This document shows positions 1-53,086 of a stretch of 64,000 nucleotides of DNA, in pieces. The position numbers and the translations under genes were made by a program. The DNA is from Eledone cirrhosa (taxonomy: Eukaryota). The stretch's first letter is position 1. Each line of letters begins with the position of its first letter. The notes beneath the pieces are model-generated. The model saw nothing but the letters and a program-made list of their open reading frames with translations. It had not been told where the DNA came from and made no database searches. The stretch covers positions 30,256,001 through 30,320,000 of the forward strand of contig OZ024752.1 of the NCBI GenBank assembly GCA_964016885.1. Reading direction: 5' to 3'.

Positions 1-1946
1 AGGGCACTTTTATCAGTGTGGTCTTTAACTAATCAATTAGTAACATTAATATTTTTTTTAATGTAAACTTGAATTATAATATTTGTATTTATTCATGCCT
101 CTGGGATTGTGTTGCACAGTATTTTACCAAATATCTCTTTTCCAGAATTTAAACTTTTAAGAAACAAAGATTTTCAAATGTCAAACGTGACTAAATCTCT
201 GTCTAGTCTTAAACTTAACTCACAACATTGACATACTTAATGTAAAACTTTCGAAAATGTTAAATTTAATTAATAATCTATTGGACCATGAACTATGTAT
301 TCTAGTTTTCTAAATATTTCCTCATAAACATAATAAGAGCAGCTGAACCATATGTAAACTGGAGAAAATATTCCAATACTTAAACATTTGAAAATATGTG
401 AGTTTAGTTGTATGAGTGGTTTATACTGAAAAAACTTTAGGAACAGTTTTTTTAATATGTATATATATATATATATACTGATGAAATAACTCAAAACAAA
501 GCTATAATTTTTTTCTTTTTCCTAAGTGGTAAGAAATTCTCAGAAGAGCAGAAGGTCTTCAGAGAAGAACCTCTCCCCAACTCAAGCAAGTGTTTCAGTC
601 CTTGGCCTGTTCCCAGACACTAATGGTCTAGCTATGTGGTAAGAAACTTTCAGAAGAACTGGTCAGCAGAAGGTCTTCAGAGAAGAACCCCTCAAGCAAG
701 TGTTTTCCCTTAATTTCTGCTTCAACAATTTTCTGTCAGCAAAAATAGATAAATAATTTAGGAAATAAAAAAAAAAGATTGAACAAATGTTGTGAATAAA
801 ACTCTAAAAATGAATTTAATGAAATCAGGATAGCTTGAAGATACAAGTTTATTAAATCAACTGTCCACATCATCATCATTGTTTAATGTCTGCTTTCCCT
901 GCTATTAAGGGTTAGATGGGTCGACATAGATCAAGTTAATACTGAAACAGGGCTTCTGATCTCCCAGACAAGTCAGAGATCACCATCTCACTTATGTATA
1001 GTCTCAACAATAGTAGAAAAAAATGACACAAAAGATTTAAAACAAAAACTAAATTGAAATTATTTAATTTTATATAATTTCTGCATAGTAATAGAAAGCA
1101 GGCTTCTATCTGCTACTGGTACTATGCAACTCAATACAACTAAGCCAGCTCCCCCCACCAGACCCTGGTCTGATAAGGAAGGTAAGTGGAACCCCAGCAC
1201 AAAAAACAAGAGCTGTTAAAAGGGCAGGTGAACTCCTCAGAGTCAATGGTCATCCACCCCAACTGGGTTAAATAGCCACACCAATCCACAATTGACCAAG
1301 TGTGGTGAGTACGGCTATGAAGATATGACCAAAACTAAGCAGAAAACAGTGGAGGTCTACCAAGGAGGGATTCCTCAAACAGGAGTGAAAAGTTCCTGGA
1401 TTGGATTGGAATAGAAAACAGTAAATTTTATACATTTATTAAGTATTGATAATATATTACACAAAGATTAATCATGAGCTTAATGTAGAAATGGTTGATG
1501 AAATGAATAAGTTATTGTATTACTAGTACATATGTCTTGAATACAATAAAATTATAGATATTTTATTGAATATCTGGCCATAACATTAATTCTACATGCT
1601 TCAGATCAGGTAACTATCAGAGGAGTAACATAATATCTGTGAATGTTACTAGCATTTCACTGCCATCTGAGCCATGGACAATTTATTTCATATTTAGTTA
1701 ATGTCATCAACTTAATAATCTGCTCATATAAACTTCTCAGATTTCTAGGAAGATACAAGGTTTGGCAATGTTTTGTTTTCCATTTCTTTTTTTTTTTTTT
1801 TTTTACAAAATGTTCTTGGTGAAACTAAATTTTTTATTGATTCCTCTAAAATGGATATCCATGAAGATGGATCTCTTTTAGCTTTGGTGATAAGTATTCA
1901 CAGAAAAAGAAAGTGTTTTGTTTATGGATTTAAGTGTTTTGTTTAT

Positions 1947-2139
1947 GCATTTAAACAGGCCGTATCTGGCCAGAATTCTCTCACCTTTTCTGTTCAAACT
2001 GATGTGAAGGTATTATTCTCAAAATAAATAATATCAAAATCTCATCAATTCAATATTATATGAGATGATTATGTAAGGTAAAACTTTTACCATGATAATA
2101 TAATAGTAAATATAGAGTAATGTAAAGCTAAAGGGTTAA
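1947..2139. mobile_element. piggyBac-like MITE family A, left end decayed
   Basis: Ends GCTAAAGGG-TTAA; body matches the copies at 4095 and 11270. Confidence 0.7.
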
Positions 2140-2294
2140 ACAATGACTATTTCTATACAAACAAAATTGTGTATTAGCAAACAAAATTCGAAGAGCTGTC
2201 AGAAATGAACTTTGACAACATGCAGTTTATTTACAATTCTTAGAAACATAAACTGTATAGTGACAGAAAAAAATATTCTCATGATCAGAATTTT

Positions 2295-2390
2295 ATTCAG
2301 TGTGAGGAGCCATTTGGCTGAATTCACAAGTTCCTCAACATCTGGTTGTAGTATTGTTAGTGACAGATGAATATCTTGCAAAGTTAGGGC
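2295..2390 (-). mobile_element. Possible hAT (Charlie/Buster-like) transposase C-terminal remnant
   Basis: QDIHLSLTILQPDVEELV followed by a shifted ..SH* resembles the DLRLxLTxIxPDIxxL..PSH* terminus; short match judged by eye. Confidence 0.35.
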
Positions 2391-4094
2391 GGTTTCATGA
2401 TTTTTTTGGTAGTTGGATCAAATGTGAGAAAAATAATAACATAAATAATAATTATATTTTCTCCAAGAAGCAATGAAGAATTCCGAGCAACATAAATTAT
2501 GTTTGCCGTGTTTCAACCTAACTTGAGCTGTTTGATCAATCTGTAACTCAATGAGGCTTTCTGTAACTTTAAGTGAATCTCAGCTGTATTTACCCTAAGT
2601 GTGGCCACCACCCAATTTGGAATGCTGAAATAAACTTTCATAGCCCTGTCTGTCTGTATGTATGTATGTATTGTGTATGTATGTATGGATGGATCTGTAA
2701 TTCCCAAGGGAGTTGTAAGAACACTGTACTGACAAACGGCATTTCTAGGGTATTTTATTTTAAAACCTAGCAGAGCCCGTCTCCTCTCCCTGTATAAATG
2801 TTTTAAATGGTCAGCATACACAGAAATTTGAAAGATTATCATTTTGCAGTTCTGTATCTCTATTATTTTGAGATTCTTTACCTTCTTGGTTACATTCCTA
2901 AACTCTTGCTTCTCTATACCAATAATTTACATGGTGGGGTGATTTTAGAATCACCCATGGTATATGCTATATAACTTAATATTTTAAATCACTAATTGAT
3001 AATTTCCTTGATGTCAAACTCTAATCCCTCATGTAACAATCTCACCTCCTAAAATATTATATAAACTCTGGGGAAAAAACTGATTTACATGCTGTTAGTT
3101 TTCACATCAAAGTAAACAGGTTCATTGAGCATTAAACATCTTTTATAAAGGAGACAGTAAATTGACAGTCTTTTCTAGATAAGACAGTAAATTGGCAGAG
3201 TTGCTGAAGCTTTATTAGATGGTATTTGCCCAAAGCTGTTAGTTCTAGCCAAGCATTCTAATATTCAGATTATACCATATTTCTCATAATGATAAACTTT
3301 CACAGAGAGAGACCATTCTCATACAACTCTCACACCCCTTATGTAATCCACACACCACAGAGTATTTCCCAGTGGTGCCATGGCAACTGAGTATCGTTTA
3401 ACAATACAAAAAAAAAACAATACAAAAAAGACACAATCATAACACAATTACAACATTACACTCTTTCCACTTGTGAACAACTTGTATCTAAAACTTTAAC
3501 ATCATTTAAAATCTCTTTTGGTTTCTCATGGAATTCATATATTTGCAAAATAACCAAAGCTGAGTTCAACATTTTCTGGCGGAATGGAAAAAAATAGCTT
3601 TGGAGTAAATTTACAGTCTGTATGCAGCATGCAATCTAGACAGGAAATGTGTGCATAACTTTCTCCATGATAGGAAAGGATGCAACACAATCTTTGTGTG
3701 TCCATCCCACCTTCTAAGATATTCTACCTTAATTTTGGCAGGGTTAAAATATTTCTCGTTTTCCCAGCATCATCTTCTGCAATATATAGTTAGTGAGGCT
3801 AGAGAAAAATTAGCTAGGAAAGAGAAAAATCCTTGGGAGACAATTCTAAAATCCAAATTAAAAATTGAATGCAGACATGCAGTGAGGAGTGAGTTTGACT
3901 TTTGACAAGTACATTGAAAACTCCAAACATGTTACTGGACTTTCTCAGTAAAACATAGACTTACTCAAACTTATCAGATACTTGATTACTTAAGAGAATA
4001 ATAATTTGAGAGAAAACTATTCACTGATTTGACAACAAATATTAATGACATTGGAGAATTTCCCAGGGATGCCTTCTTCATGAAGAACATATAT

Positions 4095-4323
4095 TTAACC
4101 CGTTAGCATTTACATTACTCTATATTTACTATTGTATTTTTGGGGTAAAGGCTTTACCTCACATAATTATCTCACATAATATCAAATCTATGAGATTTTG
4201 ATATTACTTATTTTGAGAACAATACCCTAACATCAGTATGAGTGGCTGGTTACAGCTGGTTTGAACAGAAAGAGGTGAGAGAATTCTGGCCAGATATGGC
4301 CAGTTTAAATGCTAAAGGGTTAA
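4095..4323. mobile_element. piggyBac-like MITE family A
   Basis: TTAA-CCCGTTAGCATTTA ... TAAATGCTAAAGGG-TTAA: TIRs with TTAA target duplication. Confidence 0.85.
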
Positions 4324-4849
4324 GTAGGAACCAACATCTTTATTATTCTCTCAGACTATCTAAGATAAGTATGAGTAAGGCTATGCTGAGAAGGTCTAAT
4401 AAGATTGAAACATGTCTTGAGTTGTCACCATACTTACCAAAGGTCAGACCTACTTTTCACAGCATTTGTCTATTCAATTTTCAATTAATTTTGATTACAA
4501 AATTGTCTCCCTTGCCTTTTTTTGACAATAATTAATGATTAGAGCTAATTATTTTCCTCTTCATTAAGAGTTCAATTTAAAAGAATTAACAATAAAGTGG
4601 AGGTGGGGGGGGGGGGTCACTACATTAAATGTATACCCTCACCTCATTAATTTTATTAATTAATGTTTATCTTATTTTAATATGTGTTAATATATTTTAT
4701 TTTATTTTATTCAAAATTTAATTTTATGAAATTAATATAATTTTATTGAATTAAATAATTTGTAATAAATCATTGATTTATTTCAAAATATTAGATTTGC
4801 CAACAAGAAATAGCTTTAATTATTTATTTTTATTTAACTTTTTTTTCTA

Positions 4850-5045
4850 TTTCTCTGAATTGAGAGATCGCAGCTCTGATATTAAGGACATATGGTTAGA
4901 ATAGGGTTCCTCCGAAGGGACTTTGGAGTAACATTACTCAATAGAGTACATAACTCAGAGATCAGAGTGTTGCTGCAGGTAGAGCTGCTACTTCTCTGAA
5001 TTGAGAGATCACAGCTCCAATACTATGGACCAAGATGGTTGAATA
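4850..5045 (+). mobile_element. Degraded RTE-type LINE 3' fragment
   Basis: Matches the reverse complement of 43570-43700; internal duplication of ttctctgaattgagagatc. Confidence 0.55.
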
Positions 5046-5838
5046 ACATCCATGAGCGTGGCTGGTCTTGTTTGGGGATCAAGCCAGATCATTTGGAGAT
5101 GGTTGATTCTGACAGGCCCCACTGGAAGGAGTTTTGAGGACTGTGCCGAAACTACCCTCCCAGGAATAAATGGGTAAAGAAGAAGAAGAGAATTAGCTTT
5201 ATAGGTGCTATTAGTAATTGTATTTAAACAACTCACATACTGTCAATATTGTTTTATGCTTAATTGATATTAGATATTAGCATAAATCTTACATGTTAAT
5301 AATCTATTTTAACAAGGATATTTTGTTTGGGGAGTTTTTTTTAGTTTTTTGTTTGTTTGGTATATTTCCTTTTTAATAAAATTATAGAGATGGAGAGTGA
5401 GAATATGTTAATGTCAGCATTACGGAAAATGTTAGAAATGACATCCCAGGAGTAAAAAAAAATATATAGGACATTGAAATGAATATCAGAAATGAAATCA
5501 ACTCCAATACTATTGAAAATGTTATTAGTAAAATCCCAAAAGGAAACATAAATTCTTATAGCTTTCGTCATTACTTCCTGTTGTAGTTATTTTGCATTCA
5601 AATAAATTTACTCCTTGTTGTTGTCGTATATTGTGAGGAGGTGTTGGTAGAACGAAAGCTTTAAATAATAAAAATGTCAATGAACTAAATTTTTCATTAA
5701 TTAACACATGCTGCTGCTGCTGTTGTTGTTGTTGTTGTTGTTGCTGCTGTTATAGATATGCTGGAAGTTTCTATGGCTGATGGGTTTGTTTGGTTGGAAA
5801 AGGACAGAATCAAGCAAATTACTCCTAGTGTTTTCTGG

Positions 5839-7350
5839 TACATATATTAGGTGATATATAGGTTACTGACACATACATACATACACATGTACACATACAT
5901 ATATTAGGTGATATATAGGATACTGACACATACATACATACACATGTACACATACATATATTAGGTGATATATAGGTTACTGACACATACATACATACAC
6001 ATGTACACATACATACATAAGGTGGTATATAGGATACTGACACATACATACATACACATGTACACATACATATATTAGGTGTTATATAGGATACTGACAC
6101 ATACATACATACACATGTACACATACATAAGGTGGTATATAGGATACTGACACATACATACATACACATGTACACATACATATATTAGGTGTTATATAGG
6201 ATACTGACACATACATACATACACATGTACACATACATAAGGTGGTATATAGGATACTGACACATACATACATACACATGTACACATACATATATTAGGT
6301 GTTATATAGGATACTGACACATACATACACATGTACACATACATAAGGTGGTATATAGGTTACTGACACATACATACATACACATGTACACATACATATA
6401 TTAGGTGATATATAGGTTACTGACACATACATACACATGTACGCATACATATATTAGGTGATATATAGGATACTGACACATACATACACATGTACACATA
6501 CATATATTAGGTGTTATATAGGATACTGACACATACATACATACACATGTACACATACATATATTAGGTGTTATATAGGATACTGACACATACATACATA
6601 CACATGTACACATACATATATTAGGTGATATATAGGGTACTGACACATACATACATACACATGTACACATACATATATTAGGTGATATATAGGTTACTGA
6701 CACATACATACATATATTAGGTGTTATATAGGATACTGACACATACATACATATGTACACATACATATATTAGGTGATATATAGGTTACTGACACATACA
6801 TACATACACATGTACACATACATAAGGTGGTATATAGGATACTGACACATACATACACATGTACACATACATATATTAGGTGATATATAGGTTACTGACA
6901 CATACATACACATGTACACATACATATATTAGGTGGTATATAGGTTACTTACACATACATACACATGTACACATACATATATTAGGTGATATATAGGTTA
7001 CTGACACATACATACATACACATGTACACATACATATATTAGGTGGTATATAGGATACTGACACATACATACATACACATGTACACATACATATATTAGG
7101 TGGTATATAGGTTACTGACACATACATACATACATACACATGTACACATACATAAGGCGGTATATAGGTTACTGACACATACATACATACACATGTACAC
7201 ATACATATATTAGGTGGTATATAGGTTACTGACACATACATACATACATACACATGTACACATACATATATTAGGTGGTATATAGGTTACTGACACATAC
7301 ATACATACACATGTACACATACATATATTAGGTGATATATAGGATACTCA
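5839..7350. repeat. Minisatellite, ~57-bp unit (53-61)
   Basis: Tandem atattaggtgatatataggatactgacacatacatacatacacatgtacacatacat. Confidence 0.97.
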
Positions 7351-7494
7351 TACATACATACATGCATACCCATGTACACATAGACATGCACACACACATG
7401 TACACACACACACACACACACATACATATACATACAGGCACACCCACCCACCCACCCATAAACTGTTGACATTCTATGTTTAAGTGTGACTCTC

Positions 7495-8445
7495 ATTAGA
7501 GTACAGCTAATATACCTAGATTAGTACTGCTAATATACCTAGATTAGTACTGCTAATATACCTAGATTAGTACTGTTACCATATCTATATTAGTACTGCT
7601 ACCATATGTAGATTAGTACCGCTACCATATCTATCTTAGTACCGCTACCATATGTATGTTAGTATTGTTACCATATCTATATTAGTACTGCTACCATATC
7701 TATATTAGTATTGTTACCATATCTATATTAGTACTGCTACCATATCTATATTAGTATTGTTACCATATCTATATTAGTACTGCTACCATATCTATATTAG
7801 TATTGTTACCTTATCTATATTAGTATTGTTACCTTATCTATATTAGTACTGCTACCATATCTATATTAGTATTGTTACCATATCTATATTAGTACTGCTA
7901 CCATATCTATATTAGTATTGTTACCATATCTATATTAGTACTGCTACCATATCTATATTAGTATTGTTACCATATCTATATTAGTACTGCTACCATATCT
8001 ATATTAGTATTGTTACCATATCTATATTAGTATTGTTACCATATCTATATTAGTACTGCTACCATATCTATATTAGTATTGTTACCATATCTATATTAGT
8101 ACTGCTACCATATCTATATTAGTATTGTTACCATATCTATATTAGTACTGCTACCATATCTATATTAGTACTGCTACCATATCTATATTAGTATTGTTAC
8201 CTTATCTATATTAGTATTGTTACCTTATCTATATTAGTATTGTTACCTTATCTAGATTAGTACCGCTACCATATCTAGATTAGTACCGCTACCATATCTA
8301 GATTAGTACCGCTACCATATCTAGATTAGTACCGCTACCATATCTAGATTAGTACAGCTAATATATCTAGATTAACACTGCTATTACATCTAGATTAGTA
8401 CTGCTATTACATCTAGATTAGTACTGCTAATATATCTAGATTACT
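7495..8445. repeat. Minisatellite, 23-bp unit
   Basis: Tandem attagtactgctaccatatctat alternating with attagtattgttaccatatctat. Confidence 0.97.
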
Positions 8446-9044
8446 ATTGCTGCTCAGGCACCAACATTCAATACTGATTGCTAACGGCTTATTCCCTAAC
8501 ATATGACAACATCTTAGACATGCTGAATTAAAATAACCCCCGCACCCCTCTGGTACTTTGTTCTGCGACCCAAGAGTTAAGAAGGCCACACAGCAGCCAT
8601 TCAACATCCATTTTGAGAAAAATGTTTGCCTGCTTCAGGCCCCAAAGGGGTCTTGTACTGCCTTGGAAAATTTCTCTTGGAGGCCCTGCTTATAACTTAC
8701 TCTTCTTACCTTGTTCTGAAGCGTACTCTCTACATAAACTCTACACATACACCAATGCATAATATCTTATAAGGCAAATTGTCAAGTGGTGTATCAATGA
8801 GGAAATATAAAATTATTAAAATAAGGCAAAAGGATTTTGGCAATCTGCTGTGAGTAATAGATGTGTGTTGGTATTGATACAAACATAAACTTGTAAGGAA
8901 TGAGAAATTCTAGCTGATAATTTGGTTTCTTAGAATTATTAACACAAAAGAGGAGTTGAATTTGAAAACTGACAGCAATAAAAGCCATATAAGCAATTGA
9001 ACATATGTAATCCAATAGTTGAACAAAGCTTTCAATTTGAACGG

Positions 9045-9406: not shown

Positions 9407-9471
<65 letters not shown>

Positions 9472-9751: not shown

Positions 9752-9793
<42 letters not shown>
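9045..9793. repeat. Compound (AT)n/(GT)n microsatellite
   Basis: Seen directly; source of the YI/CV-rich spurious ORFs. Confidence 0.97.
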
Positions 9794-9796
<3 letters not shown>

Positions 9797-10345
9797 ACAC
9801 TTGCTAGAAGGGAAAATGGGCGTTAAATGAAAAATGATGATGATGATGACATACATTTCAATATAAAGAAATGAGAATTATTGGGGTAAAATAGAAAGAT
9901 TTACCATGATTTAAGCAGAATTCATCTGAATTCTTAATAAAAAGAAGTCAACGCAGAGAATATTATTTTATGTAGTGCTATATAATACGAAATATGAATT
10001 GCAGAGATATTTCATGCATGCCTCCTGCATATGAAGTACAACAAAATCTTACAGGTTACATTACATATTAATAAGCTTTGGGGTAAATTTCTAAAACTTG
10101 AAATATTGATTTTGAAAAATCTTTTCTTATTTCTTTTTCAGTAATAATAAAGAAATGTGAATAAAGGGAAATATCATCATTGACTTGAGTTTAAACTGTT
10201 CATCTTTTATTTGACTCAACTTAGAAGTCATTGTTGTTCATTATAAATATAGAGTTATGTCAACCTGATTCAGTAGATAGGATTTTACAGAGAAAAAGCA
10301 ACCAACAGGAGACCCAGGAATAGACCCTACCAAGCAAGATAATAA

Positions 10346-10485: not shown

Positions 10486-10531
<46 letters not shown>

Positions 10532-10666: not shown

Positions 10667-10683
10667 GTATATATATATATATA

Positions 10684-13414: not shown

Positions 13415-16400
13415 TCATCATCATCATCATCACCGTTTTACGTCCATTCTTCCACGCTAGCATGGGTTAGATGGGTTGTCCTGTTGTGGGCAGTGTCTGG
13501 TCGGCTGACCATGCCTTGGTCATACAGGAACTGATTTGGCTTGATTTCTACAGCTGGATGCCCTTCCTAACACCAACCTCATTTACAGTGAGTGCTGGGT
13601 GCTTTTTCGTGGCGACTACACGTCCACTTTACAGTGTGGGCTGGGTGCTTTTTTGCCGTGGCACCTCTACGACCACCTTGTGGTGGGGGGGTGGGGGCAT
13701 ATTGTCCATATGCTTCAGCTTGTACCCATGGGAGGTCGGGTACTCTGTATTACTGCGTGACGCCAGAGGTCACGGTCGTGTGTCATTGCCTTTGAGAGGT
13801 GTAATTGGGTAAGGTCGGCTTTTATCACCTCATCCCAGGTCATCTTGGGTCTCCCCACTCCGCGGTTTCCATCGACTTCTAGTGCTCTGCACCTTTTTAT
13901 GCAGCTGTCATCCTTGATACGCATCACATGTCCATACCAGCGCAACCGCCTCTCCTGCACACAGCATTTGATTCCTCTTATGCTCAGTCTCTCTCTCAAT
14001 TCATTTATGCTTTGTCGTTCACGTATATTACTGTTACACATCCATCGGAGCATGCAGGCTTCGTTTCTCTCTAATCTACGTAAGTCTTCCACCTTCAGTG
14101 CCCAGGTCTCACTACCATGCAACATCGCTGTTCGGATACACGCATCATACAGTCTGCCTTTCATTCTGAGGGAGAAGCCTTTTGCAGCTAGCAGTGGTAG
14201 TAGTTCCCTAAACTTATTCCATCCCGTTCTTACCCTAGTTATTGTACTTTCTGAACACCCACCTCCACTGCTAATTCGGTCACCTAGGTAGCAGAAGCTG
14301 TCTACTGTTTCTACAGAGCCCTCCCAGAGATTGGTGGTACTTGTTTCCTGTGGCTGTATGCTGCTTGCTGTCCCAGCACAGCTGCTGCATGTGAAGCCTA
14401 CATTCTTAATTAAGCTTCCCGAGATCCTGCTACATCTCTTGTGTACTCATTGTATGCATTTGGGGCAGAGAATGGAGTTCCTATATACTGAGCAAGGCCA
14501 TTTCCCTGAGGGGATCTGGGTTCTGTTTTCTCGTCTACTTACAAGGACCTTAGTCTTTGTCATGTTGACTTTGAGACCCTTTCTTTCTAGTCCCTGCTTC
14601 CAAGTTTGGAATTTATTCTCTAGTTCTACCATAGATTCAGCTATAAGTGCAAGGTCATCAGCATACATGAGTTCCCATGGGCATCCGGTCTTAAACTCCT
14701 CCGTTATTGCCTGCAGGACTATGATGAACAGGAGGGGATAAGAACAGAGCCCTGGTGGACCCCAACCTGTACGCTAAATTCCTCGCTATACTCATTGCTA
14801 ATCCTAACTTTGCTGACTGCTCCCCTATACATGGCTTGTACCGCTTTCACAAGCCATTCATCTACTCCTAGTTTTCTAAGAGCCTACCAGATTACAGCAC
14901 GTGGAACTCTGTCAAAGGCTTTCTCAAGGTCGATAAATGCCAAGTAGAGTGGCTTACTTTTAGCTAGGTACTTTTCCTGTAACTGCCTCACAAGGAAGAG
15001 GGCATCAGTGGAGCCTCTTCCTGGTACAAACCCAAATTGCATCTCGTCTATTTTCACCCGGTCCCTAATCAACTGTGCTATAACTCTTTCTGTTACTTTC
15101 ATGACCTGGTCCATCAGCTTTATACCTCTATAGTTTCCTCTATCTAGTGCATCACCTTTACCTTTGTAGCAGTTGACAATGATGTTACTGCACCAATCTT
15201 TTGGTATGACACCTTCTAGTATTACCTGGTTAACAATACGTGTGGTTATAGTGTGACCTACAGACCCAGATGCCTTCAGCATCTCGGCAGCTATACCCGA
15301 TGGACCGGTTGCCTTCCCCATCTTCATATCTTTGATTGCCTTACTTACTACGTTGCTGCTGACTTGTACTGCTGGCCCCTCTATAGGGTCTACTTGGGGT
15401 AGGGTCTCTTCTTCCCATGCATTCTCCTCATTTAGTAATCTATCATAATGACTCTTCCATGTATCTTTCTTCTCAGCACTTGTGAGGGCATGCTCACCTT
15501 TATCATTCCGGATACACTTCTCTCCAATGACATTACAACTCTCTCTGACACACTGCCTTGCAATCTTGAACACCTCCTGTTTCTGGTCCTCACGTTGCAA
15601 AACATGCTTGAATTTTCTATCCTCTGCTTCCCTCCTAGCTAAGTATACTTGTCGCCTAGCTTCCCTCTTGGTATCTATGTAATGTACCCTGCTCCCCCCG
15701 TTCTTCCATTCTTTCCATGCCTGTCTCTTGGCCTTAACTGCTTCATCTACCTTATTGTTCCACCACCAAGTCACTCTCCTCCTGCTTGAGGTCTTACTCC
15801 AGCCACAGACCTCATCCGTCGTCTCTAGTAAATTATTTTTTAGGAACTCCCAGTTCTCTTCTACATTGAATGTCTCTATCTGTTCTTCTTTACTGTCGTA
15901 GGCGTTGAGTAAAATATCTTTAAATCTGTTACTGGTTGAGGGGTCTTTCAGCTTCCAGTTCTTTCTTCTCCAGGTTGGCCTCTGTTTCCAGGTTCGTCTA
16001 GTTCTGACCGTGAGGTCGCTGACAACTAAGCTATGTTGGGATGTACATTCCTCACTAGGGAAGGCTTTTGTGTTTACGACCGTCCATCTGTCATATCCTC
16101 TGATGAGGATAAAATCTATCTGACTGGAGTGCTCCCCTGATCTATAGGTGATTAGGTGGTTGTCGGGTTTTTTAAAGTTTGTGTTACATATCAACATGTC
16201 ATTGGCGTCGCAGAATTCTAGAAGTCTGAATCCTTCCTCATTTCTTGTGCCAACCCCATGGCCTCCATGTACTCTATTGAAGCCGTTGCAGTGTTTACCT
16301 ACGTGTCCGTTAAAATCTCCTGCGATGATTAGGAAGTCATTGTCGTCTGTTAGAGCAGTAGTGTGCATTAGGGACTCGTAAAACCTATCCTTAAGTTTGT

Positions 16401-16821
16401 CTGGCAGCCCCGATTGGGGTGCGTAAGCTGATATTATTGTGGTAATTGTTTTATTCAGGACTAGTCTGAGTTTAATGATTCTTGCATTTACCCTGTACAC
16501 TGAGATTACTTTATCTACCCACTTGTCAGCTAGTAGTATACCTACACCACCCATCCCATCGTCATTTCCCACACAGAAAAATTTGTAGCACCGACTTTTT
16601 CCTACAAGGACTCTGGCAGACTCTCCTCTCCATCTAGTCTCTTGCACACAGCATACATCAATTTCCTTTCGCTCTAGCATTTCTACGATTTCTCCTGCTC
16701 TTCCTTTCATTGAGCCTACATTGATGGTACCAACTCGGAGTTTGGGGCATTTGTCGACACTCGTAGGGAAGGGTCTCTGGATTGGCGCTTCACATGGGTG
16801 CTTGGTAGCTCGCAGATTCAT
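13415..16821 (-). mobile_element. Near full-length RTE-clade LINE, ORF disabled (APE endonuclease + reverse transcriptase)
   Basis: 645-aa ORF with CVQETRW, SAYAPQ, GDFNGH, QIDFIL, NYRGIKL, QFGF, DLEKAFD. Stop at 14884 and later shifts; YADD at ~14660; C-terminal LRWYGHV..GRPK; (ATG)n tail at 13415-13432. Confidence 0.97.
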
Positions 16822-17097
16822 ATTTCATCTATTGATTCAGAGTTGCTCAAATTTATTCTCAGCTCATCCATCCATAACAGTAGGAAAATATGAATGCTTT
16901 TATGTGTGTGAGTGTGTGTGTGTGTGTTCACATATGTGTTTTCATGTGTGTGTATGAGTGTGTGATTTAAATTATGTAGAGTTTGTAAGAGAGTTGAGTA
17001 AATTGAATTGCTGAGATGAGTGGAAAAATTGAAGTTTCAGAAAAATGGAGAAGCTTCTGTAACATGGGAGCTCATCACTGAGATGTTGAAACATCTG

Positions 17098-36548: not shown

Positions 36549-36778
36549 AATAGACCAAGCTTTATTATATTTGAGACTGTTTTCATTGAAATCCCTATAA
36601 AATTAGTCAAAGAAGGTTTTTATTGATGCTATAACTTTAGTATCAACTGAAACAAACCTGTCCTACAATGGATACTTTATAAATATACATTTTAAATGGA
36701 TGTACACATATTGCTGGTAAATATATTTGTTGTTTATATTTTATTGTTTTGCAATAAATGGCTCTCTCTGTCTTACAG

Positions 36779-37522
36779 GATTTCTTTAGTTACTGATGAT
36801 CCCGGTGGGGTTTTTTGATTCATTTATAATTGGACCCAATGCCAGTCAAAAGGAATAAAACAGTAAAATGTCAGATTGTTAACCATTTGAGATAGACATT
36901 GTTTTGTAGATAATATCTGATTTCCCTTGAGTTAAATAGTGTTTCCATGAGAAAATAGTTGATTTCCCTTTCCTTCTTGCAAATTTTAATGTTATATCAT
37001 TTATATTTTTTCTTTTTCTTTTGCAAAGCTATGCTCCAGACCACAACAGAAATGAGAGACATTTACTAAGAATGTATCATACCTCAAGATGAAATGTGGA
37101 AATAGAAATATCAGTGAAATCATTGCAATGGAGTCAGAATCAGTTTTATAAGACAGGGTGCTATTTGTATTCCTCACCAATATAGATTAAATGTCAAGAT
37201 ATTATTGAATGTAGAAAAGATGAATTTAAACAGAAACTAATTCCTGTTAGGTCATGGAGTGTTCTTAAACTGTAGTACTAAATACTGGTATTTCAGTTAG
37301 GCATTTATAGAAAATAATTCTGATATTAATAAAATGTATCCTTTTGATCATGTTCATGCTGATTTTTTTTTTTTTTTTTTTTTTTTTGATTTTTTTTGTT
37401 AAATGTATGGATGTATTGATGACACTGAACATAACCTCGCTATGAGGATATGCCAATGCTCTAAAGTGGCTATCTAACTGTGGCTATCAAAGAAGCTGGC
37501 TTTAACTTTGATGAGATGGATG
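36779..37522 (+). pseudogene. Best-supported exon cluster of the candidate pseudogene (3 exons)
   Basis: tcttacag|36779-36862|gt, ttgcaaag|37029-37250|gt, 37405-37522|gtaag. Reads ISLVTDDPGGVF*FIYNWTQCQSKGIKHYAPDHNRNERHLLRMYHTSR*NVEIEISVKSLQWSQNQFYKTGCYLYSSPI*IKCQDIIECRKDEFKQKLIPVRYGCIDDTEHN(fs)RYEDMPML*SGYLTVAIKEAGFNFDEMD. Confidence 0.6.
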
Positions 37523-40189: not shown

Positions 40190-41359
40190 AAATAGGAATC
40201 CTTTAAAAGAGGTGGTTTAGTTTCATAGGTTTTGGGCAGGTTGGTGTCTAATTGGTTAAATATATGATCAGAACATCAAATCTTAAATTTTTCCCCAACT
40301 CTAAGAATGGAAATGAGAAACCTAGAAGGAGAATCGGTCTCGGTACTTTACTGGTGCTTTTTTTTATCAACCTTGAATGGATGAAAGGCAAAGTTGACAC
40401 TATCAGGATTTAAACTCATAGAGAAGAGAGCTGTAAAAAGTACCACAAAGCATTCTATCTGGCATTTTAATGACTGCCAATTTGCTACGTAAACTAACCA
40501 ATAGCAACATTGAAAAACATTGGAAAAACATGTAAACTGAATGGATATGTGAATACATATTGCTCTATAGGTTTTGATATCAAGAGAAGCTCAAACAGAA
40601 ATTAAAGTTTCTTAGAGGGCAATTATCCTCCTCCTTATTGATCACTGACTTTCACTCTTTCACTATAGGTTTTGCCTAAGGAAAAGGAGCTATATCCATG
40701 GTATTTGCAGCATACCACCCCACCAAGACCAGTGCAATAGATTCAGTTAACATTTCAGCTTGACAGCTGCAGGAAAACCATTTGCAAAAAGGGACCCCAG
40801 AAGATCAATGATTGGGTAACTTTTTTAAGGATGTGGTTTAAGATATCTGTGTAACAGATGTGAGAGCAGTATATTAGGGATGTGGTTTAAGATGTCTCTC
40901 TGTGTAACAGATGTGAGAGCAGTATTTCAGGGACGTGGTTTAATATGTCTCTCTGTGTAACAGATGTGAGAGCAGTATTTTAAGATGTCAGTGTGTGTAA
41001 CAGATCTAGGAGCAGTATTCTATTTTTGTATAGTTATTGTTGTATAGTTATTGTATTAGTTATTGTTGGGGACTGATATATTTTCTAGCCTTGGAGATTA
41101 AAGCCTGTTTCTGTGATTTAGTATTTGTGCATTCACCAGGAATAATCCTCAGTGATAATAACGTAGATCCTTTGTAGTGAACTTAAGGTTTATAATTTCA
41201 TGTTTTTCATGTTTTGAAGAAAGGCACAATACTGATTTCTTGATATATTTAGTGATAATGTCTGAGCTGTAGAATGAGACAAGATATGACATTGAAAAAT
41301 ATACAGTAACTTAATTCAGTTACGGATTAGGACAATGAGATTGATGAGTTAATATATGT

Positions 41360-44120: not shown

Positions 44121-46643
44121 GTTTATCCTACACCCACCAGTCATGATACCATTTCCAACATGGCGGCACATGTCAATCTTGTTCATAATCTTCATCTATT
44201 CTTTAAGTGTTAATATTTCTCTATTTCAGATTTAAAATAATCTTAGAGTAGGGAGTAATTGTAATTTGTAAATATTTGAGAAGAACAAAAGCTGTTCTTT
44301 ACTTGAAAAACAATTTGCACTAAGAATTATAGAAGATAGTAAAATAAGTGAGCACGGTGAAAATGAGCAAGTGGAAAGAATATATAAATTAGTTTTAAGT
44401 GTGATAACATGCTATGAAATATGTTGGTCCTCTCTCTCCTTGTTTCCAGCTAAATCTGATAACATATTTTTAACAGTGCCCCTAATAATAAGTGTGATGA
44501 CATGCAAATATATCTGACAATGTGATAGTGAGTGTAATGATATGCAAACAGGTCTGTCAAGTATGATAGTGAAATTAGAAATGGCATATGTAATAGAAAT
44601 GACATTCCAGAGTTAAATGTGAAAGCACAGGCAAAAAGAACAAAAACAAAACAAAACAACAACTAACATTATGGATATATTAGCATGATGGCATCTTAAC
44701 AGAAGTAATATTGTAAAAGTGTGTATGTTTGTGTGTGGTTAGGATGGAAAGGGTGGGTGTTATCACAACTGATAATAGTTCAGTAAGTATGCTGGCATAG
44801 TGACATTGCTAACATTACAGAGTTAAGTGTATATGGGGAGGGGGAGGGGTGGCATGTTAACAGGTTTGGAATATAGAGGCAGTAAATGGTATGACATGCT
44901 AATAGATTTTGTAATATACAGGCAGTAAATGTGATGATGTTCAAAACATAATAGACAAGAGTGGGCTGTATTATATAGCTATATAGTACAGTGGTATGGT
45001 GGTGTTATGGTGATCATGAGTACGATGACATGCCAATAGAACTGATATTATGTAGCAATTAAATAAGAGAGAAGCTATTAGGAAATTGATGATGTAATTG
45101 ATACCATTCATTTTTCCCTTTTTAAGGTTGCTTTCAGTACAATGCTAATGAAACTGTCAACAGAATTCAGAAGTCCTTCAATAGATAAACATAAAAGATT
45201 CTATAAATTACAACACAAAAGAAATTCAAAACTCCTTTAAGAAATAAATATTAATTTATCAATGACAATAATATATTCTTTAATTTATTATTCTACAGAT
45301 CATTAAACTACTAATAAATGAGAGTTCATACAATTTAATAGAGTAATTAATAGATTAACAATATTTCTTTATAAAAAAGATATTTATAATCCAGTTTAAC
45401 AATTTTCTTAAAGGATTAACTGCTATGATTAGAATATAAATGATATTAAACATTATAAACAATGATGGGCTATGTTGGGTATTAATAGAGTCACCTTTTC
45501 TATTGGGAGTATATGATTAATTATTTTGTGGGTATAAAATAGAAGTTAAAATAGCAGAAACAATTTATATTTCTTAATTTGACAAGGAATGGAAATTGAT
45601 AACAAGGTTTCTCTATAAGCAGTAACTACAAAGGATAAGTGTGTTTATTGATCTATTGTTCTTTTGTTTGGTACGAATCTAAGATGTTTCTTCTCTTAAA
45701 TGTATGTTTGAAAATGGGTTCATCTCCAATATACTCTATCATTGATCAAATCGATTGACAATATCCCTGATCACACTTGCTCACCATGTGGGATGGAACT
45801 TGTTAAATCGGACCAAAGAAACAATTCTGAAACAATACTGATGCTATCTACTAGAATACATGACTGGAGATGCACACTTGGTCTATCAAAGTAAAAAAAA
45901 TAAAATCCACTCAGAAATCACCAGAAAAAATGGCATGAGACCAGATATAGTACTTCACTGCCATTCATCAAAACAAGAGATTCTGATTGAAATTACTGTG
46001 ACATCTGAAAACGAAATGGAGTAACCATACATACTAAGTATGTCAGTAGCTTGAGGTAAACCATCTTCCAAGCTAAGGCCTTTGCCAGAGAAGTTGGATC
46101 CAGGTTTTCTTTTTAAATCAAATCTGCCAAATTTGTTCTCATGAAACAAATATGGATTTCTGATAAGTAGAGGACCAGAGCCCTAGGGTAGAAGAAGTTG
46201 AATCAGAGTTCCAGGTAAATCTGGTCGACGATGAACGAAAGTAAATTCCATAAGGTTTAAATGTCCCTATTTACAAGAGGTGTCCAGTAATTAAATAGTT
46301 AAGATATCCATCATGAAAGTAAGTTGTCTGATAACCCTGGAGAGAAAATGGTGAAACCAAAACAGAAGGGAAATCAGGAACTTGCTGTTTTAGAGGGTGA
46401 GGAGTTAATGACTGAAACATTTGCATGAAGGAGGCGCTTCTTTTCTGAAAACCTTCTTCTGCTCTCCAGCTCTCCCAAGAGTTTTTTACCACTATCTATA
46501 GAGTTCAATCGACAAGATCCAAACCTCATTCACTTACCGAATGGGGTGGAACTCATCAAATTCGACCAAGGAAACAATGTTTCCATTGCTGATGCTATCT
46601 ACCAGTCACAACTTCTCTCTCTCTCTCTCTATATATATATATC

Positions 46644-46978
46644 ATCATTTCATTTTACGTCCGCTTTTTCCCTGCTTGCAAGGGTGGGACGGGAACTGAT
46701 TCTGGCTTGATTTCTACAGCTGGATGCCCTTCCTAACACCAACCTCATTTACAGTGAGTACTGGGTGCTTTTTTGCCATGGCACCTCCACGACCACTTTG
46801 CAGTGGAATGATAGGGACCCCAGTCCCTATCATCTCATTTCTACAGCTGAGTAAACTGGAGCAATGTGAAATAAAGTGTCTTGCTCAAGGAAACAACACA
46901 TCGCCCGGTCTGAGAATTGAACTCACAACCTTTCGATTGCAAGGCCAATGCTCTAACCACTAAGCCATGTGCCTCCAT
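46644..46978 (-). mobile_element. tRNA-derived CORE-like SINE with RTE-derived 3' half
   Basis: Near-identical reverse complement of 60531-60870. Confidence 0.9.
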
Positions 46979-49441
46979 GTATATATATGTAGCATAGGTA
47001 TAGATTTTGATTGACAAGATCCCAGACCTCATTCGCTGGAGTGGAACTCAAAAAATTAGACCAAGGAAACAATGTTTCCATTGGTCTTTCCATTGGTGAT
47101 ATTATCTACAACTCCTAACCAAGATTGTTTATTTAAACTTAGGAAATTTATCAACTACATTAAATTTAAAAAAAACAACATTTTTTGCAACAAAATTTGA
47201 CATAGAAGATATAAAATATATTTAAAAGCGAAAATCATATAATGACTTCGTTGAAATTAAAAGCAGATATTAAACTCATAATTGCCAGTAAAGAAAACAC
47301 ATTAAGTCTGTGATGGTGGAGGAGGCTGGTGGAGGGTGTTGAGTGTGGTGAAGGGTAATTGATGGTGATAATGTTTATAATGTTTATATAAACATTATAT
47401 GGCAGTAAAATCACACAAAATACTATTAAGGAAAAAACTTTGAAAAATGTATGAAGGAAATTTACTGCATAAAATAAAATAAAATAAATGAATTAAATAT
47501 ATAATATGATAATGACATTTCTTTAGAATTATGGTGAGAACATAACTCATGGATTTAATCTGCTACAAGACAGTTTTTTCCTACCTCGTTTTATCTAATT
47601 AGGAAAGTAATAGACCAGACTTGTTGATAAAACTTGTAAATATATGTAGACAGTTTCATCATAGTTGAAGACTCTCTATTTTAAAGATAGATATGATGAT
47701 GATGATGATGATGACAGTGATGGTGATGTTGACGATGGTGATAATAATAATAGTGATGGTGATGATGATAAAATTATGATAATGATGATGATAAAGATGA
47801 TATTTTCATCTCCTGGTTGGTTCTGATCAAGTATCAAGTATTAAGCATAGGTTTGATGAAATGGCATTCCAGCCTTCATCATCTCATCACTTTTGTTTTT
47901 TAAGATAGTCTACTGAGGACTACATTACCCAATGTGCATTGCTGTATTTTTTCAGATGGTAGGGTGTGGTTTATGGAGAATTTAGCTGCTAATTCTAGCA
48001 GGTCACACAACCTCGTAGAGATTACATTGTTGACTCTCAACATTGATGATGATGAGGTAGAGGAGAAGAAAGTAGGAGGTGAATGAAGAAGAGAAGGGAG
48101 AAGGAAGAGTGAGCAGGGAAAAGAAGAGAAGGAAGAGAAGGATGGTGATGATGATGAAGAGGAGCAGAAGAATAAAGAGGAAGTAGGAGGAAGATGAGGA
48201 TGAGCAAGAGGAGGAGGAGAAAGGGGCGAAGAGATGGATGGGAGTGTGGAAAAAGACGAAGAAGGAAAAAAGAAAGGAGGAGGATAGTGAGATACCAATG
48301 GAGCATCATTTTCAACATGGAACCCTATTTTAAGTGGAATTACCCAAGTTTTAAACCTCCTGGCTCAGGTCTCATCCTCAGAGCTTCTCTTTATAACTCC
48401 AGCTCAAAATTGATATTCTAGAACCACCACCACTAACAACACCACAACAACACCAGGATGGAGAGGTTGACGATGGTTTTTACAGATAACAATGCATTAT
48501 TCATGAATATATTTAGTTTCAGAAAATATGTTAAAATCACAATGAAAAGAATGAGAAACACTTAATACTGCAAACAACATATAATTGAAATAATTCATTA
48601 AACAAAATCCCTTTTTTTATCATTTAAAGAAAAATGTATTCTTTTATTTATTTATAAACTGAAACTCTTGATATAAATATATCCAATTGTATATATAATA
48701 TATATATATAAAATGTATATAATATATAAATATATATATAAAATGTATATAATATATAAGTATATACATAATATATATGATATATATAATATATGTATAT
48801 ATATACAAAATATACAGATATGTACATAATATATTAAAAAAATATATATGTATATTATATATTATATGTATTTATTATATATAAATTTGTATATAATATA
48901 TATATATAGTAGCATTCCCATATATGTATACATAACTATATTACATTTCAAGCTTATTTTCCTCATCTATATTCATGTATGTCTATTTCCTGAAAGAAAA
49001 ATAATCATCATCATCATTTTTACATCTGTTTTCTCCATGTTTCCATGGATTAGAGGAGTTCTCTCCAGTACAATGTCCCTCTGTTTCTCTCTTTCCTTTG
49101 TCATCTCCTTTTTGAAGTTCACCACTCTCTGACACCCATTATCACCACTCCTGCACAAGTATTCCTTTGCTTACCTCTACCATAGCTTCCTTCTACCTGA
49201 ACCTCCTGAAATTTATTTAACCACTGATTATCTTATCGTACACATACTTCAACTTTCTCCAGTTTACCTCACTAGCAAAAGTGGATTCAATCTTGTTTTC
49301 TGATTAAGTAATTAGCAGTTGGAAGATAATCTAACTAAGGAATACCTGTTCTAATAAAGCCTATGCAAACAGAAAAATGGATGCAAAAATACCACAAAAA
49401 TTATAAATTCTGAAAATCTCTATTCAATTAAATTTCTATTT

Positions 49442-49805
49442 TTAACCCTTTGTTAACATATTTCTAAGAAAATAAACTGTATGTTTAAATCATTTACCAT
49501 ATTTCTCGTGAAATACACTGCCTATGTTTAAACCTATTCATTATCATATTTCTCATGAAATACACTGCCTATGTTTAAACCATTTCATTACCATATTTCT
49601 CATGAAATACACTGCCTATATTTAAACCTATTCATTACCATATTTCTAATGAAATATGCTGCCTATGTTTAAACCATTTCATTACCATATTCTAATAAAA
49701 TAAACTGTCTATGTTTAAATCCTTTGTTACTATATTTCTAATGAAATATACTGCCTATGTTTAAATCATTTGTTACCTTATTTCTAATGAAATATAATGC
49801 CTTTC
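49442..49805. repeat. ~46-bp minisatellite derived from the MITE-B terminus
   Basis: Starts TTAACCCTTTGTTA; unit ttaccatatttctcatgaaatacactgcctatgtttaaac. Confidence 0.8.
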
Positions 49806-50282
49806 AAATAATAAAAAATTTGGGATGGGGATTTATTCATAGTTTTATGTAACATAAAACAAATTGCTCTACACCAACTCATGCATAAATTTACTGAAAT
49901 AAAAACACAAGATTAGAGCATGTGAAAATCTGACTTTAGAGCAAAAATATTCAGTTTAGATAATATACAGAATATATATTGTTACATTGCTATTGAAGTT
50001 ATATGGAATAGTTTATTGCCCTTGAAGCTAGAATATGAAAAAGCATGTGTTACTTACTTCATATGAATATTTCCGAAACTTAAATAGGTGTTTTACTTTA
50101 TCCATGATTATCTGAGTAATTTACTACAGATGAATTAATGGTTGAACTGATAAAAAAACCCTTGGCACTGCAAAAGAAAAGAAATATATATATAAGGATG
50201 AGTAAAAAAAGGAAAATATTTATGTAAAATAGGAGAAAGGTTGTGACAATACATAAATAAAAACATAACAATGTTTATGAAT

Positions 50283-50700
50283 ATCATCATCATCATCATT
50301 GTGACCACAGTCAAACATTCGTGCTGAAGTCTCTTTACAATTCATGATTTTCCATTGCTCCTGGCAACTGTTCCTTACTGAGGTTTGTATTGTTTGTTTG
50401 GGCAAGTCTTCCTCTACTGTGTCTCATGTGAGTTGGTTCCCACAAGAGTAACTTGTGTATAACTTTCTGATTACTTCTTCAGCAATGTCCTGCACATTGA
50501 AACCGTCTTTGAGCAATTTTAGTTCTTTACTTGGGCAAATTTCCATATAAATTTTAATTTGTAATATGTTGATGCCAGTTTATGTTTTGTACAACCCTAA
50601 GCACTTTAGTATAGGCACCATCTAGTTTCTTCTCAAGTGCTTGTGCTAGGGTCCAAGTATCTGATCCATACAACAACATTCACTCAACAGATGTTTTGTC
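50283..50700 (-). mobile_element. Degraded RTE/RTEX-like LINE 3' end
   Basis: LLYGSDTWTLAQALEKKLDGAYTKVLR..LYGNLP..LLLWEP; (GAT) tail. Confidence 0.75.
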
Positions 50701-53086
50701 TATGTTAGTTAATCTAGTTTAAATTTCAGTTTTACCTCATTTATCCAGCAAATTTTACTGTATCTAGTTTCTTCATAGAAGTTAATAATTTAAACTTAAA
50801 AATAGTGTTCAAAATGAATTAATCTCATGAAAGAAGATGATGTCTGCATTATAAATAAATATTTCATTTAGTTGTATTATTAATTCAGATTAGAATGAAA
50901 TGACTGGTGTTGATAAAAGCTGTAGAACCAAGTCAGTAGAAGTTACGATATCAATAGGAGATATACACCAATGCTAATAGAGTTATGATTATGGGACCAT
51001 CACCAAGGATGGATAACACTGCCAACTGACCCCTCAATGATTACGGGGCCAACATGAAGGATGGATGCACTGCCAACTGATTCTTTCAATGATGTAGGAG
51101 TGTCAGCTGAAAAGTTGATAGACTGGGTATGATGGATTGATGTTAGAGCTGTGAAGTCTTGCATGCATTAAATTCAACTCTTCTTATTAATAACTGCATT
51201 GTTTCTTTCCAGGGATTTTGTTGAAAAATAAACCTTATTTGGTCGTTCTATGAGAGTAATTTGGTCAGCCTATGAACTTTTCAGCCAGCCCTCATACACT
51301 CACATTTAGAAAATAGAATCTATATAAAAATATCCTGAAATAGTTCCTTGAAGTTTTGACTTAACTTTCTTCTCAAAACACAAAGAATAAAGATAAATTT
51401 AAAAAACAAAACAAAAATGTTAATCAACAAAACTGGTCAAAATGATTTTACAGCTCTAGCATCCCTCCTGCATAGTCAGCCAATAATCTGAGGGAGATTT
51501 GGCTGATATTTCTAGCATTTCTGATATTACTACCATGTCTACTATATAAAGGCTTCTTTGGAATAATTTTGACAACTAAGTAGAAGAATTAAATGTAAAA
51601 TTCTATGGAAAAAGAAATCTCTGAATAGGTGTTTTAATATCAAAACCTAATTAATTGATAATTGTTTCTACTTTTGGCACAAGGCCAGTAATTATCCCAG
51701 TGTATTACTGGTACTTTATTTTATTGACCCTGTAAGGCAAAGTTAACCTCGGCAGGATATAAAGCAATTTGTCATTTAAACAATTTTGTAAACATTTCAC
51801 TGTCTTATTTCTTAATAAATTCTTCTTAATTCCTTTAAAACACCTGATATGCTATTAAGATTTGATCTATTCTTATAACATGTTTCACTTTTAATGGCAT
51901 TTCCTTGACATTCTGTAAGTGTATGTGACAGTTATGGAAAGTTGGTTCCTATTTACTCCTCTTGGTTTATTTACACCTAGGGGAATCAAGTAGTGTAGTA
52001 ATATAGAACATGGACATGTTTTAATATGGTGAAATTTTATCTGAAAACATGTACACCCTAAAATAAATAGTACTGAATCAGGTTTGACAGTGACAATTGA
52101 CAGTAATTTTTTGCACACATGCATTTTGTGATCAGGGAGGTTAGATGTTAGGAGTTTTTTGTATGAGTGCAGTGAAGCTGTTGATGTATTTGTGAATAAG
52201 TTGCAAATATAAACTTACTTTGCTTGGCAAGCAGTTCATATCACTTGCTGTGTTCCATTATGAACTATTTTAAGACACAAATGTCCCACATGTTGTTGAG
52301 CTTTCTAATATAGACATCAGTCATTTTTTTAAGACACACAGTTGCTATTTTTATATCGTAAACCAATAAAGAACCAATTACATGCTTACAATATGTAAAC
52401 CAACTGACACAATAAACTACCTCATAGAAATTATTAATTCCATTGCCATTGTGCAAGTATAATATATATATATTTTTTCTTTTACTAGATCTACCTACTC
52501 AATTCTTACATTCTGAGTATGGATGTACTTTGGAACACTGTTGACTTTAGAACTTACTAAAATGAAAAAGAAGTTTTTCATTAATCACATTTATCTTTAG
52601 ACCTTTTCAAATTAAGCTTACTCTTCCATAGCAATTTATTTCTGGGGTTCTGGGAGTGAAAACTAAATCAACAGGTAACAGAAGCCTTTAATTATCAACT
52701 ACTATGTGGTAGAGAAGTTGTTGTGAAAAAATACCTCATTATTCATTAGTTAAATAAATTTCAGATTCCTATCTACAAGACACACACGTGAAAACAGTTT
52801 CAACATATGAAAAGACAATATAAAATGTTCAACTGTCTTTACAGTTCTGGTTGGACTACACCTTGATGATGAAGTGTTATAAGACTAGTACCTATCACCA
52901 TACTGCTAACGACTTTACAGTTCTGGTTGGATTGTGCCTTGTTGTTGAAGTGTCATAAGACTAACACATATCAGCATTGTGCTAAAGACTTTACAGTTGG
53001 TTTGACTATATCTTGTTGAAGTGTTATAAGACTAATATATATATATAAATAAATTAGACAATTATCAAAGTTGTGTTCAAATCATT

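Follow-up and report, generated by a model that had tools for sequence, protein, structure and literature searches.

A candidate old multi-exon pseudogene across 51 kb whose TGA-rich stops are not a footprint of CpG decay

The closest described systems are spliced non-coding transcripts, edited messages and unprocessed pseudogenes. Thousands of putative long non-coding RNAs (lncRNAs) are described for octopus in PMC9115989, which finds fragments of repeats in over 35% of transcripts. A passage on coleoid transcript analysis allows for stop-loss editing of UAG to UGG (PMC8382921), and octopus methylation is placed in gene bodies in PMC9476566. A survey of octopus unitary pseudogenes was absent from the matches listed, as judged by title or by the start of the abstract. 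The locus described here lies in a window of 64,000 nucleotides (the whole stretch of DNA analysed), for which a sequence-only reading had proposed a decayed gene of about 17 exons with TGA-biased stops. A decayed multi-exon gene is still the best single reading, whereas the CpG and stop-bias argument that had been made for it fails. We give about an even chance to the segments being exon remnants of an old unprocessed pseudogene, derived from an unnamed spliced protein gene.

The exon chain was rebuilt using generic splice matrices and amino-acid frequencies that were not trained on this genome. Only six joined segments, exon 3768-3888, the site at 37404 and the two end coordinates were carried over from the earlier reading. 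Instead of about 17 exons, the rebuild gave 14 candidates in 146-51309, all on the plus strand, and one extra donor at 36717. Two frames are referred to below: the proposed frame, which is the second frame of the six-segment join, and frame X, an alternative that contains no stops in 3768-3888 plus 5756-5837, in agreement with the ambiguity already noticed at the 5' end.

The first candidate (146..397) is weak, with 5, 10 and 9 stops in its three frames and a GC content not above that of its flanks. It is followed by 3768..3888 (acceptor 11.2 bits), 5756..5837 (2 stops in the proposed frame), 8774..8849 (weak acceptor of 1.0 bit; 2 TAA in frame X and 2 stops in the proposed frame), 9976..10054 (stop-free in frame X) and 10142..10333, which has an acceptor of 12.0 bits, an AT-rich intron of 87 nt in front of it and no open frame (7, 4 and 5 stops). 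A 26-kb gap follows, containing a minus-strand LINE retrotransposon with endonuclease and reverse transcriptase (13424..16830) that lies outside the gene. Beyond the gap are 36779..36862, which has the best acceptor of the plus strand (13.5 bits) and a single stop in the proposed frame; 37029..37250, separated from it by a 166-nt intron and holding 2 stops in the proposed frame and 4 in frame X; and 37404..37522, with a donor of 9.0 bits and 5 stops in the proposed frame against 1 in frame X. The last of these shows a long T tract without AG, and its start is preceded by AAA, so the reported loss of the acceptor holds. The frameshift reported near 37435 stays putative, since a homologue would be needed to place it. 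The 3' part comprises 40669..40815 (acceptor 9.2 bits, donor 6.0 bits; 1, 1 and 3 stops), 47527..47606 (splice sites of moderate strength; a single stop in frame X), 47905..48001 (either one candidate exon or two, given acceptors at 47905 and 47956), 50889..51093 (5-6 stops in each frame, none open) and a candidate last exon, 51213..51309, with an acceptor of 11.9 bits and no donor. Four short introns separate neighbouring candidates (62, 87, 153 and 166 nt), and short introns cluster at 36.7-37.4 kb. A further exon-like piece on the plus strand, 36607..36716, is missing from the earlier reading; it ends at the strong donor 36717 and is without a good acceptor. Splice and GC criteria were the only ones used to pick this donor, and the 36 stop-free codons of the piece, in the proposed frame, are in phase with the next exon.

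The join of 5756-5837, 8774-8849, 9976-10054, 10142-10333, 36779-36862 and 37029-37250 measures 735 nt (244 codons) and carries 12 stops in its second frame (8 TGA, 3 TAG, 1 TAA), as had been counted. Its edges were also confirmed, with AG at all six acceptors and GT at five of the six donors; the exception is a GC at 10334, next to an inserted repeat (10339-10415) whose tail is 5 nt away and which matches, in reverse, a copy near 23.4 kb. The supposition that this frame is more open than chance was not borne out, since shuffles gave 19.3 stops per frame and a probability of 0.12 that the best of three frames holds 12 stops or fewer; for random chains from the window, the value was 0.54. Over ten exons, the proposed frame accumulates 27 stops versus 16 in another frame, and the most open frame is not the proposed one. 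When all 14 candidates are joined, the three chain frames contain 30, 49 and 45 stops, and none of them can yield a protein.

The stop spectrum likewise gave no sign of CpG decay. TAA should not have been expected to be clearly commonest, as shuffles yielded 7.66 TAA, 7.59 TGA and 4.04 TAG. TGA is at chance level in the join (8 vs. 7.6), and TAA is short (1 vs. 7.7-9.7 expected), a deficit that neither decay nor chance predicts. Frames in which TGA makes up at least two-thirds of the stops arise with P = 0.018 in shuffles and 0.032 in random chains, and those in which TAA accounts for at most 1/12 with P = 0.006. Decay was simulated in six settings, which combined a CpG rate of x10 or x30 with three CGA levels, at 250 runs per setting. 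Rather than the bias that CGA>TGA changes had been thought to leave, it produced TAA-dominated stops (means of 5.4-5.9 TAA, 2.7-3.0 TAG and 3.1-3.7 TGA), with at least 8 TGA among 12 at P ≤ 0.016. In four flanking exons that had not been counted before, the proposed frame meets 15 stops in 154 codons, 8 of them TGA (P = 0.20). CpG decay was rejected as the origin of the TGA bias because the simulated spectrum differs and the flanking exons show no significant TGA excess. The excess comes mostly from out-of-frame reading and the choice of the proposed frame and is not a CpG footprint. To reach 12 stops, the simulation needed a median divergence of 0.43-0.48 substitutions per site, at which one would not expect 735 nt free of indels and canonical dinucleotides at 11 of 12 splice sites. 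The TGA excess does not rise above chance, and the candidate is probably an ordinary pseudogene.

The ratio of observed to expected CpG in unique sequence was 0.09-0.32 in 15 of 16 bins. CpG density was 4.7-7.0 per kb, compared with about 15-20 per kb when a genome count given in PMC9476566 is divided by an assumed genome size for an assumed species. With octopus methylation placed in gene bodies, this depletion counts in favour of a former gene. Low CpG spans the whole window, including the region past 51309 (0.25), and is therefore not specific to the candidate chain. It is in line with a reading without any gene, according to which cryptic splice-like sites in AT-rich, CpG-poor DNA, stemming from old repeats or from an intron of a larger host gene, were joined post hoc. 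We consider this reading doubtful but a serious contender. The ordinary stop count of the six-segment join (P 0.12-0.54) speaks for it, and so do the strand controls. A stop-tolerant exon-chaining script scored the plus strand at 39.7 and the minus strand at 39.2, whereas reversed and complemented sequences scored higher (74.9 and 107.3); as these two controls probably overstate CpG codon scores, only the minus strand served for comparison in the chaining test. Exon-like site pairs numbered 58/17/6 on the plus and 63/26/9 on the minus strand, so the plus strand is not richer, and short-intron patterns were equally frequent (four on each). Chains bounded by AG and GT can thus be assembled equally well on the opposite strand. 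In favour of the pseudogene, five of the ten plus-strand acceptors of at least 10 bits begin candidate exons.

Repeats bear on the same question. The segments had been described as unique, but 3825-4004 repeats 4340-4521 in inverted orientation and overlaps exon 3768-3888, whose 3' half and donor lie in the repeat arm. The two arms, which share 71% identity over a 160-nt core, delimit an old, putatively MITE-like inverted-repeat element (3825..4521, unstranded); their match continues across the donor at 3889, and a younger TTAA-flanked repeat is inserted in the element at about 4095-4325. An exon within a repeat arm agrees with the absence of a gene. It is also compatible with a spliced lncRNA made partly from old repeats and lacking a coding ancestor, in which use would keep the splice sites while the frames are meaningless. 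This would account for good splice sites without a consistent frame and for the donor that lies in a repeat arm. The absence of AG at 37404, the lack of Rfam matches in the window (a weak test) and the frame bias in three blocks detailed below argue against it, and we rate it as unlikely. The repeat-containing lncRNAs of Octopus described in PMC9115989 resemble the locus in that exon-like pieces lack a long frame and one overlaps a repeat; they differ in that some blocks here keep a frame bias and that the pieces are known from sequence alone.

Residual coding signal was sought in four blocks. With the best frame chosen for each, they contain 14 stops (5 TAA, 4 TAG, 5 TGA), a mix close to that of simulated neutral decay. 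So few stops arise with P = 0.029 in GC-matched window segments and 0.002 in Markov resamples, values obtained with exons and block edges picked after looking. Block 36548-37250 has 5 stops in 158 codons in the proposed frame, while 3768-10054 (2 stops in 119 codons) and 37404-47606 (3 in 115) are most open in another frame; these three near-open blocks span two or three junctions each. Compared singly with GC-matched segments, the blocks gave P values of 0.04, 0.10, 0.28 and 0.94. The codon-likeness of frame X in the ten-exon chain reached P = 0.0005; a GC floor raised this to 0.033, and to 0.21 when all 14 exons were included. In 3768-10054, the best frame stood apart from the second with P = 0.006-0.008. 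Fewer block-wise stops than expected by chance fit an old, frameshifted multi-exon pseudogene. Together with the in-phase, stop-free piece 36607-36716 and the short-intron cluster at 36.7-37.4 kb, the block-wise open frames and codon-likeness weigh against the absence of a gene.

Switching of the open frame between blocks is also what indel errors in the assembly would cause, with the gene intact in the animal. However, every block keeps in-frame stops, and an intact conserved protein should have matched in at least one search, making such errors very improbable. A live gene whose stops are removed by A-to-I editing (UAG and UGA to Trp) or read as selenocysteine is extremely unlikely. TGA and TAG without TAA would be the spectrum of single G-to-A changes from TGG, but 12 rescued stops in 244 codons would be required, raising Trp to 15 residues or about 6% (3 TGG codons exist). 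ADAR disfavours adenosines with a G on their 5' side, as in UGA. The earlier judgement that editing is an improbable rescue is supported by the 15 additional stops of the flanking exons and by the absent acceptor at 37404, and a live gene depending on a dozen A-to-I stop edits comes close to negligible. As for selenocysteine, TAG and TAA do not encode it, yet the frame contains 3 and 1 of them, respectively, and no SECIS element was found in the window (0 Rfam matches). Coleoid stop-loss editing is similar in that edited UAG stops can be read as Trp; yet the passage in PMC8382921 concerns UAG, whereas 8 of the 12 stops here are TGA and the frame fails beyond the six exons.

Homologues of the segments were not found by word-index searches with single short exons, by phmmer against 1.84 billion proteins (the 222-nt exon being queried in its closed third frame), by Atlas searches or by Pfam on the exon frames, and PDB searches with window queries gave no significant match (best E 0.043). 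Colinear protein homology across the segments was likewise not found; because these searches, with single short exons only, were weak, their outcome counts for the absence of a gene and does not by itself dispose of the candidate. No live gene was detected on either strand by Pfam on 127 + 101 open frames (at least 42 aa long and lying in mostly unique sequence, plus six chosen frames). Besides LINE domains, these 228 frames returned nothing but one C2H2 finger and one match to Sid-5 below threshold, as would be anticipated without a gene, and no tRNA was found in the window.

Several family leads were discarded. An alpha/beta-hydrolase match at 40671-40814 (E 0.043) prompted a comparison with DPP4 (dipeptidyl peptidase IV, S9B), for which an HMM of 77 bacterial proteins stayed below 0 bits on the joined and six window frames. 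Protein kinase, suggested by motif likeness, reached at best -0.4 bits when the three chain frames were scored with an HMM built from 53 kinase domains. For the NEDD4/SMURF/RSP5 family, the resemblance of 9976-10054 to the WW region of SMURF2 was not significant (E 0.21), and 36779-40815 aligned in order, in the proposed frame, with L300, a fragment limited to WW-WW-HECT start whose domains were confirmed by Pfam. This alignment, made in a comparison set without animal NEDD4-family sequences, needed many gaps and reached p 0.044 in one of four scoring schemes; with frameshifts and decoys allowed, p was 0.06-0.58, and the lead was dropped as non-significant. A five-sequence WW profile and a 17-sequence HECT profile (divergent, viral) did not score on the candidate frames, and no further relatives of L300 were found. 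Across the leads, L001, L002 and L316 proved not to be family members. Three families could each be fitted by eye, and such fits are therefore weak. PDB matches to nitric-oxide synthase, Vif and spike (E 0.5-3.4) and a Pfam match to BsobI (E 0.066) were taken as chance. Two metagenome matches to 3744-3890 (47% over 30 aa) had been chosen on an exact 8-mer, and L123, which was the one inspected, belongs to an unrelated short frame.

If the segments derive from an old unprocessed pseudogene, the exons would have gathered point mutations and indels once function was gone, and the ancestral frame would have switched among blocks through frameshifts or lost exons. Splice sites may have been lost at the 37404 acceptor, the donor near 10334 and an acceptor upstream of 36607, and introns may have been inflated by LINEs, SINE-like repeats and satellites, the 26-kb gap more than any other. 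That an octopus-type lineage lost a conserved regulator as a unitary pseudogene, with a NEDD4/SMURF-family WW-HECT ubiquitin ligase as the best lead, is improbable; if true, the loss could be dated from decayed exons and inserted repeats. A real and named gene would add one gene-loss record in a cephalopod-type genome, whereas a candidate pseudogene without a name tells little. Above all, the result serves as a caution: TGA richness of a frame in AT-rich DNA does not attest CpG decay, nor do AG/GT-bounded chains single out a strand. Unlike described unprocessed animal pseudogenes, the locus has no parent gene or orthologue found and thus no defining colinear homology. It resembles them in its ordered exon-like pieces on one strand, its intron-like gaps and premature stops, and also in its lost splice sites and repeat insertions.

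The six plus-strand segments 5756-5837, 8774-8849, 9976-10054, 10142-10333, 36779-36862 and 37029-37250 join as described in the sequence-only reading, giving 735 nt whose three frames carry 20, 12 and 13 stops; the second holds 8 TGA, 3 TAG and 1 TAA. The AG/GT boundaries held for all six acceptors and for five of the six donors, the exception being a GC donor at 10334. An inserted repeat follows this donor, its tail 5 nt away; two tandem copies of the repeat's 3' end (10339-10684, period 181, inverted relative to a copy near 23.4 kb) start at that distance. Instead of the ~17 exons proposed for 146-51309, 14 candidate exons were rebuilt between these ends, plus one further donor at 36717, which was picked without regard to frame, ends 36 stop-free codons and is in phase with the next exon. 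Neighbouring candidates are joined by short introns of 62, 87, 153 and 166 nt. The segments had also been called unique, which fails for 3768-3888: positions 3825-4004 repeat 4340-4521 in inverted orientation, the similarity extending across the proposed donor. Both arms (~180 nt) belong to an old inverted-repeat element (3825-4521) that contains a younger TTAA-flanked repeat (~4095-4325), present in four copies in the window.

The stop spectrum had been taken as the signature of CGA>TGA decay, on the premise that TAA should be commonest. For this composition the premise is wrong: 5,000 dinucleotide shuffles gave 19.3 stops per frame (TAA 7.66, TAG 4.04, TGA 7.59), so that eight TGA are at chance level. 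A best-of-three frame with 12 or fewer stops was obtained with P 0.12 in shuffles and P 0.54 in random chains from the window. The actual oddity is the scarcity of TAA in the second frame (P 0.006, shuffles), with 1 found between 5756 and 37250 against 7.7-9.7 expected (9.7 when derived from frame X, the frame one base further on); neither shuffles nor neutral decay predicted it. Carried into four flanking exons, the second frame meets 15 further stops over 154 codons, eight of them TGA (P 0.20), and over ten exons (3768-47606) it accumulates 27 stops vs 16 in frame X. Seen from frame X, each of these eight TGA triplets of the joined segments spans the boundary between a codon ending in T and one for Asp or Glu, a setting in which 7.5 such triplets would be expected.

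Decay was simulated with synthetic 244-codon frames evolved to 12 stops, at three CGA levels, with the CpG rate raised 10- or 30-fold and 250 runs per setting. TAA came foremost in all settings (5.4-5.9 vs 3.1-3.7 TGA), with P(TGA>=8) <=0.016 and P(TAA<=1) <=0.008, and the TGA bias was thus not reproduced. Median divergence at 12 stops was 0.43-0.48 substitutions per site. At 0.25-0.35, the probability of retaining 11 of 12 splice dinucleotides was 0.02-0.003 and 7-19 frameshifting indels were expected under the assumed indel rates, which conflicts with a single ancestral frame that gained 12 stops and no indel.

What remains are three blocks that each keep one nearly open frame through two or three junctions: 3768-10054 (frame X, 2 stops in 119 codons), 36548-37250 (second frame, 5 in 158) and 37404-47606 (frame X, 3 in 115). 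Exon 10142-10333 has no such frame (at best 4 stops in 64 codons). The block-wise best frames total 14 stops (5 TAA, 4 TAG, 5 TGA), a count with P 0.029 when compared with GC-matched segments of the window and P 0.002 when compared with Markov resamples. A generic codon model preferred frame X across ten exons (P 0.0005, or 0.033 once a GC floor was set). All these P values apply to exons and block edges selected after looking at the data. Taken singly, the blocks were weak (P 0.04-0.94), and all 14 candidate exons together gave P 0.21 with the GC floor. On the minus strand, used as a control, stop-tolerant exon chaining scored 39.2 (13 exons) vs 39.7 (12 exons) on the plus strand, which was no richer in exon-like site pairs or short-intron patterns. 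A chance chain of exon-like pieces with no gene behind it would fit this parity and has perhaps one chance in a few, set against the block-wise open frames; exons of a spliced lncRNA (cf. PMC9115989), which would keep such splice sites, are rather improbable. A decayed multi-exon gene is still the best reading on account of the open blocks, although the TGA argument for it fails and searches with short single exons found no homologue: an old, frameshifted, unprocessed pseudogene of a spliced protein gene is given about even odds. Assembly error as the source of the breaks is very improbable. Within candidate exon 37404-37522, 9 nt are directly repeated at a period of 14 nt (37466-37488); a small duplication at this site would shift the frame.

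Colinear homology was sought with short single exons (word-index, phmmer, Atlas, Pfam and PDB searches; the phmmer query for the largest exon was in its closed frame) and none was found, these being weak tests. Pfam on 228 open frames revealed no live gene in the window: apart from LINE domains, its matches were a C2H2 finger and a single sub-threshold hit. A live gene rescued by editing or selenocysteine (cf. PMC8382921) would accommodate in-frame stops but is scarcely credible; the window has no Rfam match. An alpha/beta-hydrolase match (PDB search, E 0.043) prompted a test for DPP IV, whose profile gave no score; neither did a protein kinase profile. Exon 9976-10054 resembled SMURF2 in its WW region (E 0.21). 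The viral collection includes a 1.1-kb record (L300:2-1114, minus strand) that encodes three WW domains and the start of a HECT domain, and looks like a eukaryotic RSP5-type transcript misfiled as viral. It aligns colinearly with 36779-40815 in the second frame with p 0.044 under BLOSUM45; the other three scoring schemes returned p 0.44-0.55, and once frameshifts and decoys were allowed for, p was 0.06-0.58. Neither WW nor viral HECT profiles scored, and the putative WW-HECT (SMURF-type) identity is so far unsupported. Of 23 viral loci (L243-L265), 19 have a long frame ending in a HECT-like catalytic motif; one was confirmed by Pfam, and an eight-sequence alignment matches solved HECT domains.

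The window (34% G+C) was masked into 12,578 nt of tandem repeats, 11,802 nt of repeats with another in-window copy, 5,726 nt of hand-marked transposon pieces and 33,894 nt of unique sequence. A LINE at 13424-16830 (minus strand) has endonuclease and reverse transcriptase domains in a 646-aa frame; a copy of the LINE's 3'-terminal 857 nt lies inverted at 32358-33214 (plus strand, 97% identity), 18 kb away, and a further match near 59098-59643 (76%). The single C2H2 zinc finger (10747-10917, minus strand; Pfam, E 2e-5) lies amid repeat fragments and is presumably a LINE C-terminus. CpG observed/expected was 0.09-0.32 in 15 of 16 bins of unique sequence across 1-64000, whereas five inserted elements reached 0.45-0.67, a difference that fits long-standing methylation of the region. 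Since the depletion continues beyond 51309, a larger host gene would account for it equally well. In octopus, methylation is located in gene bodies, according to PMC9476566; given this parallel and the CpG depletion, the window has likely lain within a methylated gene body.
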